Assembly: GCA_963708075.1 (NCBI GenBank)
Contig: OY970194.1
Location: forward strand, 4,832,001-4,896,000
DNA length: 64,000 nucleotides
Reading direction: 5' to 3'
From: Sedimentisphaerales bacterium
Lineage (GTDB): Bacteria; Planctomycetota; Phycisphaerae; Sedimentisphaerales; Anaerobacaceae
In this document: in pieces, positions 32,486-56,963 of the stretch
How the letters are laid out: each line of letters opens with the position of its first letter
How positions within the stretch are numbered: position 1 is the first letter of the stretch
Program-made: the position numbers and the translations under genes
Notes under the pieces: generated by a model
Seen by the model: only the letters and a program-made list of their open reading frames with translations
The model's database searches: none
What the model was told of the DNA's origin: nothing

Positions 32486-32786
32486 CCCTGGTTGTTCTAC
32501 ATATCTCGGGATGGTAGAGCCGCGATTCTGATGAGAAATGCCATGTTTCGGCCGCAAAGCAAGCCCGCAGGGCGAAAGATCATAGCCCAGCGATTGATCG
32601 CTGGGGACAGGGGTCGCACACAAAACGAGTCCCGTCCGGGACGAAAGAACGCTCTCGGCCGGCGCTTTTCTTTCGCCCCTGCGGGGCTTGGTATGATTCC
32701 GGACTCTCGTACCCACCGTTGAAACGGTGGGCTATCATCACCCGTCCCTGCGGGACTATCTTGACACATGTGTAGAACAACCAGGG
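32486..32786. mobile_element. MITE-like element, 301 bp, 16 bp terminal inverted repeats, 5 bp target duplication
   Basis: ccctggttgttctaca (32486-32501) and tgtagaacaaccaggg (32771-32786); ctccg duplicated at 32481-32485 and 32787-32791. Confidence 0.8.
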
Positions 32787-51750: not shown

Positions 51751-52200
51751 TCACCGTCGCGTCGCTTTGGAGCGGCGTGTGCCCACCTCGTCCCTGCTTT
51801 CCTTGTTGTGGTCTTCCAGCAGCTTCATCGCCTTCTTGACATCGGAGACTTTGAGGACCCCGGTCGTGCGTCCGCCACTGGCCCCGGCGGTGCAGTAGGC
51901 ATAGGAGATGTTGATGTGTCCCTTGGCCAGCTTCTCGGCCACGATGGCGAGGGCCCCGGCCTTGTTGGCCAGGTTCACACACAGGACCTCCGTCTCGTTG
52001 TAGGGCATGTTCAGCTTTGAGAGGATCTCCCGGGCCTTGTTCGGGTCTTCGAACACCACGCGCATGACGCCATGCTCGGCAGAGTCCATCATGGTGATCG
52101 CCGTGATGTTGATTTTGGCGTTCGCGAACTCCCCCAGGACCTTGGCCAGCACGCCGGGCTTATTGACCATGAATACCGAAAACTGCGGTGCAACGTACAT
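51751..52200 (-). CDS. Tandem ACT-domain protein
   Basis: QFSVFMVNKPGVLA...INI and NKAGALA...INISYAY. Confidence 0.9.
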   Translation of the reverse strand: MYVAPQFSVFMVNKPGVLAKVLGEFANAKINITAITMMDSAEHGVMRVVFEDPNKAREILSKLNMPYNETEVLCVNLANKAGALAIVAEKLAKGHINISYAYCTAGASGGRTTGVLKVSDVKKAMKLLEDHNKESRDEVGTRRSKATRR

Positions 52201-52419
52201 TCCTTTGTCCTTCCACGATTTGCCATGTCCAATCTGCGCTTCTGTCAGCCAATTGCTGTCGTCCCACCCATTCCGGCCTGGTTCGCCAGTTCAGGCATGC
52301 TGCGATTATCGCATACGCAACCCTGTTCTTCAACCAGAATCTTGCCGGCCCCCGGCCCGGGGGTGCGGTCGGCATACGGTGGCGGATTCGGATTCCACCC
52401 GACACAAGAGCGCAGCCCA

Positions 52420-52710
52420 GTCTTCTTTCGCCCCTGCGGGGCTTTGGGATAGGATTGGCTATGGGTACCCACCGTTGAAACGGTGGGCTATTGTCGATCG
52501 CCCCTGTGGGGCGGATGGGCCGACGCAAGAGGACTGGGGCGAAGTCCAGGCTCGAAGGGCGATAGAGAATAGCCTTCAATTTGACAGGACCACAAAGCTC
52601 AGCCATGGCGCAGTCCAAGCCCGCAGGGCGATAGAGAATAGCCCAGCGATTGATCGCTGGGGAACCGGGGCCGAGGACAAAAGCCAGTCCCGTAAGGGAC
52701 GAAAGAGGCG
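52420..52710. repeat. Long hairpin repeat cluster (CCCACCGTTGAAACGGTGGG / CCCAGCGATTGATCGCTGGG)
   Basis: The same modules occur at 32560-32760; they resemble hairpins seen with IS200/IS605-type Y1 transposases. Confidence 0.75.
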
Positions 52711-52958
52711 CAGTCCGCACACGGCGGCTACACGCCGCCACCGAATTCCGACCACACCCCCGGCCCGGCAGCAGCAAAAAATGAGGCGACGGACCTTGCC
52801 CGCAACAGCCCGTAATCCGGTGGGCGTCCCTTGGCACGGTCCGGGAAAACCGGCCAAACAGGGCTTTCTGGGCCGCAAACGCCCTTTGTAAGGGCTTGTG
52901 TCGCGACCATGTCGAGACAAAAAAATGCGGAAAAATGTGAAAATTGCGAATACCGCCC

Positions 52959-52987
52959 TTGACCGGAGGGCGTCCGTGGTGTAATAT
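52959..52987 (+). promoter_or_regulatory. sigma70 promoter of the candidate sRNA
   Basis: TTGACC-17 nt-TAATAT with an A-rich upstream region. Confidence 0.65.
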
Positions 52988-52992
52988 AAGTA

Positions 52993-53066
52993 TAAATACG
53001 TATAGCAATGCAAGCCCCTGGGTAGTCTCGCTTCCTCTCCCTCCGTTTGCTCAGGGGCTTTTTTTT
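52993..53066 (+). ncRNA. Candidate small RNA with a CU-rich anti-SD loop and intrinsic terminator
   Basis: AU-rich 5' end, a 13 bp stem aagcccctgggta/tgctcaggggctt (2 G-U pairs), a 23 nt loop gtctcgcttcctctccctccgtt and a T8 run; no credible ORF. Confidence 0.6.
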
Positions 53067-53273
53067 CTTCCTTGGGCCAGTGTACCGCTACCCTGGCCCA
53101 TCTGAGCCCGGCCGCACCGCATGAATCAGCAACGTTTCGGGGTCTACCATCCTTCTTTTCGTTCGCCTGGGCGCAGAGTGAAGTGCAACACGCCGGAAAT
53201 GTCACTTACGGCTGCAAAATACGTAGTTTCACGTATGGTACGGAGTCGGAAAACCTCTCGCGTGGTGCCGGTT

Positions 53274-53367
53274 TTGTCATCCTGACGCAAAGCCGAAGGA
53301 TCTGGCCACCGAATATGAGGGTCCTCTCGCTCGCGGCCCAGATCCTTCGCTGCGCTCAGGATGACAA
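53274..53367. repeat. REP-like palindrome (GTCATCCTGAGCGCAGCGAAGGATCT family)
   Basis: ttgtcatcctga...gaaggatctgg...ccagatccttcgctgcgctcaggatgacaa. Confidence 0.8.
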
Positions 53368-53509
53368 GCAGGGCGCACGAAGTAATCACAATTCATATGA
53401 CAGGGCGTCTTTCGCAAACCAATGACCGGTAAAGGCAGGCGCGTTATGCGTCTCGCCGCCCGCTTCGGTCGTCGGCCGTTGTCAATCGGGATTTGGCTTG
53501 TCGGCGCAG

Positions 53510-56500
53510 CTACTTGGGCTCGTACGTGATCTTCAGATGAGCCGCCTTGTCGGGGGCGCCTTCATAGGCCCAGAATCGGCGGTCTTCCTCGAAGTCGGAA
53601 CTGGTATAGAGGATCACAATGGCGTTGCCGGCCGACCAGCCGGGTCTGTTGACCACCTCCTGGAGGACTTGGGCGATGTCGGGGCTCTCGTACCAGGTAT
53701 TCGGGTTCCAGGCAACTTCCCAGTCCCAAGCCCGCGAAGCGGTTGTCCCCTTCACATTCGAGAGGCGTTTGACCGTGAAGTCGACGGGGTTGTCGGCCGC
53801 CTCGGCCTGGAGCTTGGCCATAATCCGGCCGGTCAGGCCAAACGTGTACGAGCAGATGCCCAGCGTGGCGCTCTTGATCGCAGCCCCCTGCGGGATCTGA
53901 ACGCCCTGGAATCGCATGGCAGCCAGAGACTCGCCGACGATCAGCACGTTGTTACTGAGTTCCTGGTAGGAGCCGTACTTCATGCCGTGTACGTCATCCG
54001 CCCCGGCTGACACCCGGTATTCCACCGTGACTTCCCGCTGGACCGAGATGCGCGCGGTGGCTGGTTTCGATTTTCCTCCGAATGGGGCTGTGCCGCCGTC
54101 ATCGGCCAGGAACGTGAAGCTGTCCTGTCCCACCCAGCCGGCGTCGGGTCGATAGACAACCTGGTTGGCCGGCAGCGTCGAGGGGACCTGATTGATGGGC
54201 GTGCCCCCGGCGACACTCTCCAGCCGGCCATGTCCCGGCAGCGACGCAATAGCGTACGTGATCTTGCCCGGCGGCTCCGGCGAGCCATCGTCCGTAGCCT
54301 GGAGGGTCACGACCGCGGGCGTATGGATTGCCGCGATCACATCAACGTCCTGGGCGACCGGGGGAGCCGCCTGGGTCGAGCGCAGGGTGGCTGTCCCCGC
54401 TCCCGAGACTCGCTTGACTGCCAGCAGGACGGGCATATCCGACGGGGCCACATAGCTCAAAGACTCGTCGAGGTCCATGGCTGCATTTGTGCTTGAGGCA
54501 AGAATCACCGGCGTGCCGGTTCGGCCTGGAGTCATGCTGTACAGGTAGAGGTCGAAATCCGCCTCAGCCGGGTTGTCGAGGGACAGGCTGACGCCGCGCC
54601 CGGCCGTCAGGTGCACGGTCCGTGCCCAGACGCGTTTGTCCGTGGCCTTGCCGCCCAAGCTGACGCTCGCATCGGTACCGGGTGCATAGCTCTGGCTGAT
54701 ACCCTCAACCGCTGCATCGGGGTTGATCATCCCGTATCCTTCGTAAGAGTCTTTCGAGATGGGCCAGTTATTGGGCCCGCTACTGTCACGCTGCAGGGTC
54801 GGATTGTCGTTGCCTGACTCCCGCTTGGCGTTCGTCTCCGACGCCGTGGCGCACAGAAGCATCTTCACGTAGCGGGGCAGGTCACTGGAGTTGAAATCCC
54901 AAAGGGCGCCCTGGTGCCCCAGAGCTTCAATCACCAGGGCCGCAGAACCCGCAACGAATGGTGCGGCCAAGGAAGTTCCCATCGCCGGCGTATAGTCGTT
55001 GGCCATCTGATCCTTGTCGTTTCCATCCGCGGTGCCGCTGTCCACAGACATCACGGACGTGTACCGCGGGGAGCCACCCGGGGCAAGGACGTCCGGCTTG
55101 TAATCCTCGTTTTCGCACGGGTCCAGGAACCCACGTGATGAGTAGCTGGTGAGGACATTCTCATCATTTGCCGCACCAACTGTGAGGGCCATCGCGGCTC
55201 GTGGCGGGTCCGCCATGTTCCGCTCGGCCGATGTCTTCGCATCGCCGCTATTGCCGGCGGCCGACACCACAACGATCCCGTTATTGACGACGGTATTAAC
55301 CTTGTCGCGCAGCGGCACACTCTCCAGAGGCAGGTCATTGTCGTCAGAAAGCCCATAACTGAGACTGATGACCTTGATCTTCGTTTGTGCCCGGCGAACA
55401 ACCAGATCGTCCAACGCCACCGAGAAGTCATTGTCATCGACCACCCCATCGCGCGTCTCAACCTTGACCGCCGCCCATCGGCAGCCCGGTGCGACGCCGC
55501 CGAATTTGTTGAAGCCATCGCCAACGCCGGGATAGGAATTGATGGTAGTCATGATGACAGCGTCTTCCAGCATGGAGGTCTCATAGCTGGCAATCAGAAC
55601 CGTGGAGAAAAGCGAATCGGGCGTGCCTGTCAGGACGGCGTTCATCGATGCCACCCCCTCCCCTATGTCGCCTCCTGTCGTTCCAGTCCAATCGAAGTCG
55701 CTGAGGAGGGTCCCTCTGGTCCAACGCACATGGATCAGGGCGGCAAGATTACCGCCATCCCAGTGTGCCGCGGAGTACACGTTCGAAAGGCCGATAGGGA
55801 GGCTTATAGGATCCACCAGATGAATCGAATCGGATGAGGGTGCCACATAAGTGTAGCGAAGCTTCTCGTTCGCCGCGCCGCCGGACTTGCCTGTCCCGAG
55901 GGCCACGCCGGCACAGAGGCTGCCGTGGCCGGCATAGTCCACGGGGCTCGGCTCGTTGTCGTCGGTGAAGTCGCGCCAATAGACGCATCGGCCGGCCAAA
56001 TCGGGGTGTGTGCCGTCCACACCGGTGTCGATGAATGCGATGGTCGTGTTCGGATCGCCGTGGAAGCCGGTGGGAGTTCCGGCAAATCCGGGCTGCCAGA
56101 TCGGTCGTACCCGACCGGTCCGCGAGGACAGGTCCATGTACGCGACGAGCCGCCGAATGGGCTCCACCTGCACGAGGCTTGGCCCCATCACGGCGGGCAG
56201 AAACGCGACCTGCTCACGCGGGATTCGTCCATTCCAGCCATAGGAGATCGCCTGGAACAGGTATGTGATCTCGCCGCCCATGGCGACGAAATCATCGATC
56301 TGCTGCTGTGTCACGGGCGCATTGAAGACCAGTTCCACCGTGATCATGCGACCATCACCGACTTGCCCCTGAGGTGTCGCGACGGAGATATCCTTCCGGC
56401 GAATCACCCTGCTTTCCAGGTCATCATTGATGCGGTTGCCGTTCAGGTCGGCCGGATACACCTCGCTGATCACCGGAGCCACCTGCAGCGGTGCGGGTGG

Positions 56501-56668
56501 ACGCAAAGTCCCGGCCCCGATCAGCCCCGGCGACAACAGCAGGCAAGCCAAAACCACCAGAAACAAAGGCGTCCGGATCACGTTCTTCCGACCTGCCCAG
56601 TTCTCTCCTGCAAAGGATTTCGGGGATGTCTTGGCATGACGCGATGCGCACGGCGACAGTGGATTCAT
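53510..56668 (-). CDS. Secreted S8 serine peptidase with PPC-like, Ig-like and C-terminal beta-sandwich domains
   Basis: Catalytic triad IDTG, GHGSLCAG and GTSLAAP; AAGN, KPDVLAPG, GYGMIN, DFDLYLY and GQDSFTF; RBS aggagg. Confidence 0.92.
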   Translation of the reverse strand: MNPLSPCASRHAKTSPKSFAGENWAGRKNVIRTPLFLVVLACLLLSPGLIGAGTLRPPAPLQVAPVISEVYPADLNGNRINDDLESRVIRRKDISVATPQGQVGDGRMITVELVFNAPVTQQQIDDFVAMGGEITYLFQAISYGWNGRIPREQVAFLPAVMGPSLVQVEPIRRLVAYMDLSSRTGRVRPIWQPGFAGTPTGFHGDPNTTIAFIDTGVDGTHPDLAGRCVYWRDFTDDNEPSPVDYAGHGSLCAGVALGTGKSGGAANEKLRYTYVAPSSDSIHLVDPISLPIGLSNVYSAAHWDGGNLAALIHVRWTRGTLLSDFDWTGTTGGDIGEGVASMNAVLTGTPDSLFSTVLIASYETSMLEDAVIMTTINSYPGVGDGFNKFGGVAPGCRWAAVKVETRDGVVDDNDFSVALDDLVVRRAQTKIKVISLSYGLSDDNDLPLESVPLRDKVNTVVNNGIVVVSAAGNSGDAKTSAERNMADPPRAAMALTVGAANDENVLTSYSSRGFLDPCENEDYKPDVLAPGGSPRYTSVMSVDSGTADGNDKDQMANDYTPAMGTSLAAPFVAGSAALVIEALGHQGALWDFNSSDLPRYVKMLLCATASETNAKRESGNDNPTLQRDSSGPNNWPISKDSYEGYGMINPDAAVEGISQSYAPGTDASVSLGGKATDKRVWARTVHLTAGRGVSLSLDNPAEADFDLYLYSMTPGRTGTPVILASSTNAAMDLDESLSYVAPSDMPVLLAVKRVSGAGTATLRSTQAAPPVAQDVDVIAAIHTPAVVTLQATDDGSPEPPGKITYAIASLPGHGRLESVAGGTPINQVPSTLPANQVVYRPDAGWVGQDSFTFLADDGGTAPFGGKSKPATARISVQREVTVEYRVSAGADDVHGMKYGSYQELSNNVLIVGESLAAMRFQGVQIPQGAAIKSATLGICSYTFGLTGRIMAKLQAEAADNPVDFTVKRLSNVKGTTASRAWDWEVAWNPNTWYESPDIAQVLQEVVNRPGWSAGNAIVILYTSSDFEEDRRFWAYEGAPDKAAHLKITYEPK

Positions 56669-56934
56669 TCTCTCCTCCTTTTTACTAGAACGCAGGAGAT
56701 CGCGGATTCAACCGTTCAGAACCCAGGCCTCCCAACCCAAGGACGCATGCGAAGCGAAAGACGATATCTCGCCGCAGTCCAACGCCCGCCCGGCGTGCCT
56801 CCACAGGCGTCACCCAGGGAGCTGCATTCATGGTACACCTTTCCTCCGCGCCGCGTCAAGAAAAAAGGACTTCCATGCAGCAGAAACCCGGCGTTGGAGG
56901 ATGCAGAGGGGGCATGGGTGTCGTGACATCGCCA

Positions 56935-56963
56935 TTGACCCGGAAGGCGCCGGCGGGTATAAT
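56935..56963 (+). promoter_or_regulatory. sigma70 promoter
   Basis: TTGACC-17 nt-TATAAT, followed by RBS aaggagg and ATG 57004. Confidence 0.75.

Follow-up and report, generated by a model that had tools for sequence, protein, structure and literature searches.

We describe a family of small RNAs, uncatalogued and absent from Rfam 15, one member of which is encoded on the plus strand at positions 52959-53066 of the window, a 64,000-nt stretch of DNA from a Sedimentisphaerales bacterium. Sequence comparison strongly supports a conserved, free-standing transcription unit with its own promoter and terminator, whose paralogue groups differ in promoter type; the predicted RNA, about 73 nt long here, would comprise little beyond a single terminator hairpin. 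The stem of this hairpin is kept as structure and its loop is kept as sequence. The reading that we put first, with a probability of roughly 0.55, is that of an Hfq-independent sRNA, similar in action to RepG and LhrC, whose terminator loop would pair with purine-rich leaders. As judged from genome and metagenome searches, the RNA appears to be limited to a single large family of anaerobic planctomycetes and to the phages of that family, apart from some scattered contigs.

Promoter, hairpin and genomic setting

The element opens with a sigma70-type promoter, with a -35 box (TTGACC) at 52959..52964 and a -10 box (TAATAT) at 52982..52987 separated by a 17-nt spacer. The initial annotation had called this promoter good; it is indeed present and conserved in all 44 orthologues of the set described below, but with 9 of the 12 sigma70 consensus positions matched it is, taken alone, middling. 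Transcription would start about 7 nt past the -10 box. The 18-nt AU-rich 5' leader (52994..53011) is conserved neither in sequence nor in length, the distance from -10 box to hairpin varying between 17 and 36 nt among orthologues. The terminator-type hairpin (53012-53060; 5' arm 53012..53025, 3' arm 53047..53060) is folded by ViennaRNA into 14 pairs around a 21-nt pyrimidine loop (53026..53046); the 13-bp stem and 23-nt loop proposed earlier correspond to the same hairpin with its closing G-U pair omitted. Within the loop, the family core (53026-53043) consists of two modules with a U-run between them that differs in length from member to member; the 3' end of the core carries an anti-SD-like CCUCC. 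A U8 tract (53059..53066), which overlaps the last two stem pairs, completes the intrinsic terminator, and 40 of the 44 orthologues have 7 to 9 T per 10 nt in this tract. The folding z-score of the hairpin on the plus strand is -3.2 to -3.9, none of 200 shuffles being equally stable, against -1.3 to -1.6 for the element on the minus strand, where a U-run was looked for and is absent. The hairpin also lies some 450 nt from the stop of the neighbouring S8 peptidase gene, and the possibility, raised initially, that it merely terminates minus-strand transcription of that gene finds no backing. Promoter, leader, hairpin and U8 tract all lie where they had first been placed.

The unit occupies a gap bounded by the start (52200) of a divergent, minus-strand gene encoding a pair of ACT domains (51751..52200; Pfam ACT_8), used here as a synteny marker only, and by the stop (53510) of the convergent, minus-strand S8 gene (53510-56668). 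In this gap, initially described as gene-free and about 1.3 kb long, five scanned long ORFs overlapping it gave no Pfam match. The ACT gene is found upstream in 10 of 19 orthologous loci and the S8 gene adjoins 4 of the 19, several loci being too short to reveal either. The gap also contains repeats, including two matches to the Rfam family Acido-Lenti-1. At window positions 52352-52768 and 32562-32757, nested inverted repeats carry Acido-Lenti-1 matches in inverted pairs; pieces similar to repeats of this type occur on many contigs from other organisms, and they resemble dispersed repeats of the REP type more than they do sRNA genes. A second palindromic repeat (53272-53381) was matched by numerous unrelated contigs in all four sequencing runs that we compared. 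Beyond the gap, a sigma70 promoter match of 11/12 at 56935-56963 is divergent from the S8 gene and similar in its spacer to the sRNA promoter.

The full 49-nt hairpin is identical at 19 distinct loci, and a TTGACN-17/18-TANNNT promoter precedes it in all 18 for which upstream sequence was available, while spacer and leader diverge. An independent metagenome set of 57 loci, reduced by 8 duplicates and 5 short loci to 44 usable ones, carries TTGACN-17-TANNNT in 44 of 44 cases, the spacer being always 17 nt; among the controls, downstream sequence gave no match, the reverse strand gave 5 and 4400 shuffles gave 73. Sigma70-type promoters also precede 25 of the 45 members of a second paralogue group. 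Two further groups show the arrangement GAAC-N16/18-CGTA/GTAT in 12 of 25 and 18 of 35 members (controls, 0-1), a pattern that was defined by eye on those same sequences, among which kin are not independent, and which we take to be an ECF-like promoter. Among 115 loci, the downstream gene has the same orientation as the element in 60 and the opposite one in 48, and is lacking in 7; the neighbours are unrelated, which, together with their occurrence in either orientation, argues against an attenuator. Four of 12 sequencing runs were compared, two of which (X2 and X3) are of unrecorded kind. In the metatranscriptome run X1, one 154-nt contig of depth 2, derived from a relative, matches 53004-53065 exactly and continues into unlike sequence at both ends; run X9 gave zero cover at 53004-53065.

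Conservation, distribution and likeness to known RNAs

Compensatory changes in the stem were evident in two sets of sequences. Both sides had changed in 7 of 12 pairs of the first alignment, and its covariation score (0.339 vs. 0.132) was reached by none of 500 shuffles, relatedness being ignored; a second set of 46 further matches fitted to the model showed compensatory changes at 11 of 11 pairs (covariation term, -3.96). The two main stem types have almost no sequence in common. The loop core has 18 invariant columns across 23 cellular and viral members, which were picked by that motif, its two fixed modules being joined by 1 to 5 U, and near-absolute invariance of the loop extends over about 80 genera plus phages. 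The least biased figure comes from viral matches picked by the loop alone, 19 of 24 of which lie inside a hairpin. When arms were swapped among viral members, a 9-bp helix formed in 19 of 306 pairs as against 15 of 18 native ones, in a member set that was filtered for folding and includes a few non-members. Each unit contains one hairpin, apart from a tandem pair in loci L020/L456. Promoter conservation, covariation, loop invariance and the unrelated neighbours strongly support the initial proposal of a new sRNA gene with an exposed pyrimidine loop.

These features also make it very improbable that the element is a mere terminator, a repeat or the remnant of an attachment site, without function as an RNA. 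Such an origin would fit its terminator anatomy, the dispersed repeats in the same gap and the integrases found nearby in phages. However, the element has a promoter of its own in 44 of 44 orthologues, and an invariant loop on replaced stems is the reverse of what terminators or repeats display; the minus strand lacks a U-run, phage copies are whole hairpins with stems of their own, and none of the 8 copies in the bacterium's own genome has an integrase among its called neighbours.

This genome (G000; 7.5 Mb, 92.8% complete) contains 8 strong copies, whose loops are the same and whose stems differ, and the loop pattern is present in 23 of 23 genomes of the same genus, at 1 to 7 copies each. 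A covariance model built from 26 copies gave matches at E<=0.01 in 126 of 140 genomes of the same family; since this threshold also admits plain terminators, only genomes whose best match reached E<=1e-5 were counted, which leaves 115 of 140. Two weaker matches proved on inspection to be true divergent members. Matches number 1 to 16 per genome, and small genomes of 1.4-2 Mb still retain a copy. Among 92 genomes from other families of the order, the best match had an E-value of 1.3e-5 and the five best matches were short-loop terminators; matches outside the family at E<=0.01 were 40-60 nt long, and the five inspected were plain terminators. Pattern searches gave results near control level both in the class (4 of 245, vs. 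4 control matches) and in the phylum (13 of 300, with 0 of 15 matches lying within a family hairpin). A stricter class pattern was insensitive, detecting 2 of 20 within the family, and did not enter the range estimate. A scan of named genomes found at least 80 records; among the matches listed, 58 are labelled Planctomycetota, many of them Sedimentisphaerales or Phycisphaerae, and the other 22 include eight full members, whose labels or bins may be wrong. Cultured phages and plasmids gave no significant match. The Rfam/Infernal search suggested initially gave no match on the element in Rfam 15 (best permissive score 21.3 bits, cut-off 54). In the literature covered, which excludes most subscription journals, we found no description of a regulatory small RNA family in Planctomycetes or Sedimentisphaerales.

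Several loci depart from the common form. In L303 (G600:C5:1-16000) four copies, of which one has an enlarged loop, are found within 16 kb at a contig end. GC content there is about 50%, against about 36% elsewhere on the contig, and the contig carries archaeal GatD/GatE genes; either the assembly is chimeric or an archaeon has acquired the sequence horizontally. A short, archaeal-labelled contig, L305 (G595:C60:3094-3767), bears two hairpins with the loop and a third long-loop hairpin. In L205 (G504:C318) three copies lie within 1.2 kb, two of whose loops are rearranged into repeated CUCUC/CCUC units. Paralogues of the L167 type (L002, L011, L026, L031, L033, L038) specify a two-hairpin RNA, since a further hairpin lies 5' of the family hairpin, behind the ECF-like promoter. 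On the minus strand at G000:C1:6217385-6217420, about 290 nt upstream of a gene that we take to be purF-like, lies a loop-like pyrimidine stretch with no strong stem.

Three groups of known RNAs offer the closest comparisons. RepG of Helicobacter pylori likewise bears a C/U-rich loop on its terminator hairpin; in the account cited, RepG pairs through this conserved loop, and its terminator hairpin suffices on its own for repression (PMC8295292). That account describes RepG as a single Helicobacter RNA of two stem-loops with a defined G-repeat target (PMC8295292), whereas the planctomycete family has a single hairpin, 1-16 matches per genome, a different loop and copies on phages; with no Rfam match and a distribution that is not that of Helicobacter, homology to RepG is not indicated. 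LhrC1-5 of Listeria monocytogenes are described as multicopy, Hfq-independent siblings with UCCC in the terminator loop that block translation (PMC4132741), traits to which the 8 copies of our bacterium's own genome and the UCCC within the loop core correspond. The LhrC RNAs, however, have three CU-rich sites and two hairpins in 111-114 nt (PMC4132741), as against one site in about 73 nt here, with paralogues of unrelated stems and differing promoter types. The Cuckoo, RSs0680 and alpha-r14 RNAs of Alphaproteobacteria, as portrayed in the source, combine an invariant anti-SD-like loop with freely varying stems and paralogous copies (PMC4615179), as does the present family. They differ in having 2-4 adjacent hairpins with CCUCCUCCC, RSs0680a being reported to bind Hfq (PMC4615179); in ours a single hairpin doubles as terminator, the two-module loop is longer and lacks CCUCCUCCC, and the host genome gave no match to Hfq. 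On the best reading, the family is RepG/LhrC-like in action and a member of neither group, a new RNA distinguished by having a single hairpin, by the variety of its promoters and by its capture in phages.

Copies carried by phages

Members were found on 19 distinct viral contigs (17 after merging two identical pairs, plus 2 from a second scan), all as complete hairpins with their own stems, with no isolated 3' halves. Neither promoter pattern was found within about 100 nt of any of 18 viral members, and the viral copies therefore seem to lie inside longer transcripts. In 8 of 17 viral loci scanned, the element is followed by a same-strand tyrosine integrase gene no more than 1.8 kb away. The same holds for two bin contigs, L306 and L456, of which L456 comes from a genome of the same genus and also carries a tail gene; in L329 the integrase is upstream of the element. 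Nine of these integrases fall into five groups, with 21-36% identity between groups. In L282 and L294, whose integrases are unrelated, a common structured non-coding region with no Rfam match lies about 230 nt upstream of the element behind a sigma70-type promoter.

Downstream of 9 of 18 viral members, on the same strand, lies a tRNA gene of Met/fMet type, which in L279 and L291 starts directly after the U tract. Among loci with at least 1400 nt of flank, a downstream CAU tRNA accompanies 6 of the 14 viral members as compared with 1 of the 148 cellular ones, and the lone cellular locus carries an integrase. Rfam scanning of 18 viral or prophage loci gave tRNA matches only. The association would suit an aid to translation initiation peculiar to this lineage, or a decoy in the conflict between phage and host; the RNA would imitate the 16S tail at the 30S subunit or soak up a pyrimidine-specific ribonuclease, and phages would carry it along with a spare initiator tRNA. 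Retention of a copy in small genomes would agree with this. We consider it unlikely, as the tRNA link is its sole basis. Phage tRNAs are often found in non-coding clusters close to integrases, and the phages are related by descent. Moreover, no match longer than 8 nt to 50 tRNA/tmRNA genes or the rRNA operon exists, and the RNA was not found in the sister families and is thus no general housekeeping factor.

Six loci (L020/L456, L105/L306, L282, L287, L293 and L294) have, just downstream of the element, a conserved hairpin whose ANGGA loop makes it a candidate for a CsrA-binding RNA carried by phages. ANGGAX presented on a stem is described as a high-affinity CsrA site (PMC4005645). The phage form of this hairpin was not found in the bacterium's own genome, and a scan of viral sequences for it returned 6 matches, 2 already known and 4 unrelated. 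By raw count, 8 of 12 loci have a match to a 12-mer of the host rRNA leader, presumably boxA, on the downstream side of the element, mostly right before the integrase, one further match within integrase codons having been dropped. Boxes of this rRNA-leader type occur in L282, L294, L298, L291, L297, L293, L301, L306 and L456, mostly ahead of the integrase promoter, and it is possible that phages thereby use host antitermination.

An antitoxin RNA of type I was rejected, as the two cases of an antisense SD-ATG seen in phages, in L285 and L298, by eye give unrelated peptides, and as no perfect complement longer than 14 nt exists outside the copies. Complementary sites in five phage records did not exceed control, and no cis target was found near the element in 18 loci. 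The literature that we covered on phages and anti-SD sequences, which again leaves aside most subscription journals, contained nothing on such an RNA.

A bolder and rather doubtful extension would have, in a planctomycete family lacking Hfq, a one-hairpin RNA, in up to a dozen copies under different sigma factors, exert general control of translation initiation, and temperate phages capture it as a takeover kit. Phages with at least five unrelated integrase lineages would have acquired it, in a non-coding cassette with a CsrA-type hairpin, an initiator-type tRNA and a host rRNA-leader box, and this RNA-only cassette would seize post-transcriptional control of the host.

Possible partners of the loop

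The host initiates translation in the canonical SD manner, its 16S tail containing CCUCCUUU and GGAG occurring upstream of starts 1050 times vs. 325. Its genome, which is incomplete, gave no match to Hfq or ProQ and contains one CsrA gene and three RRM genes. Start regions were taken from our own gene caller (5302 genes, some with misplaced starts). Complements of the loop are not enriched in them: 7-mers numbered 262 against a mean of 289 in composition-matched shuffles, and 9-mers 5 against a mean of 21.9, the latter count being equalled or exceeded in 199 of 200 shuffles; here the count meant is the 5 observed. Six of 88 perfect complements of at least 11 nt fall in start regions. The loop has no complement of AAGGAG, the commonest SD word of the genome. 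In a comparison for avoidance of the loop by mRNAs, 9-mers numbered 17 observed vs. 47.6, 34.7 and 25.5 expected at Markov orders 3-5, and 10- and 11-mers showed no deficit at order 5.

Individual candidates were tried and rejected. The ribosome-binding site of the S8 gene (GGAGGAGAG, minus strand) does lie at 56670-56678, and its proposed role as pairing target is not supported, its site ranking 1134th of 5302 start regions (-15.3 kcal/mol; mean -12.0, sd 4.2) and the gene being seen beside just 4 of 19 loci, several of them short. The site in a vorA-like gene is absent as a conserved feature among 27 relatives. Secreted proteins make up 41% of the top 200 predicted targets against 29% in the background and 25-38% in 12 shuffles; the 16S tail itself gives 45.5%, so that the excess reflects strong SD sites. 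Mimicry of, or pairing with, tRNA or rRNA was set aside, since similarity to 50 tRNA/tmRNA genes and the rRNA operon, in the same or complementary sense, does not exceed 8 nt. No convincing purine-rich sponge RNA was found in the bacterium's own genome; a purine stretch near the rRNA operon is located upstream of the operon promoter.

As target enrichment is absent, a protein-binding RNA stays a serious rival, which we hold possible though clearly less likely than pairing. The two invariant modules with their variable U spacer would form a site for a protein that binds single-stranded RNA, be it an RRM protein, ribosomal protein S1 or a cold-shock protein, which the copies would titrate or deliver, as CsrB does for CsrA, the phage copies being decoys. 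This would accommodate a loop near-absolutely invariant over some 80 genera and phages with no target signal, the two fixed modules on either side of a U-run of 1-5, the host's three RRM genes and one CsrA, and the resemblance of the phage-cassette neighbours to protein-loading sites (the ANGGA hairpin at six loci and the host rRNA-leader 12-mer). Yet no RNA-binding protein gene recurs among 95 scanned neighbour proteins. Titrating RNAs generally repeat their binding site within a molecule, whereas here there is one loop per RNA and tandem cases are few. The known invariant C/U-loop RNAs, so far as the sources consulted describe them, work by pairing.

We put pairing first because the loops of RepG and LhrC pair with leaders and because the Cuckoo RNAs share the combination of fixed loop and free stems. 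The open 21-nt loop would pair, without Hfq or ProQ, with the purine-rich ribosome-binding regions of many mRNAs, and short imperfect helices would lower translation of the mRNAs paired; we infer that the loop may thus act as an anti-SD repressor. A multitude of weak targets would keep the loop frozen and would explain why it is so in the absence of any single long match. Paralogues would each bring the same loop under another sigma factor, and temperate phages would have taken up the RNA in a non-coding cassette that precedes the integrase, presumably with the effect of tuning translation in host or phage.

The family is short, sharply defined, near-universal across about 90 sampled genera and easily testable. 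Its loop has stayed fixed amid change in a host with no match to Hfq or ProQ, and the partner of that loop would reveal post-transcriptional regulation in Planctomycetota. The phage versions, which lie beside integrases and tRNAs of initiator type, would clearly exemplify the adoption of a host small RNA family by viruses, and they make the partner of the loop approachable from the host and the virus sides alike.
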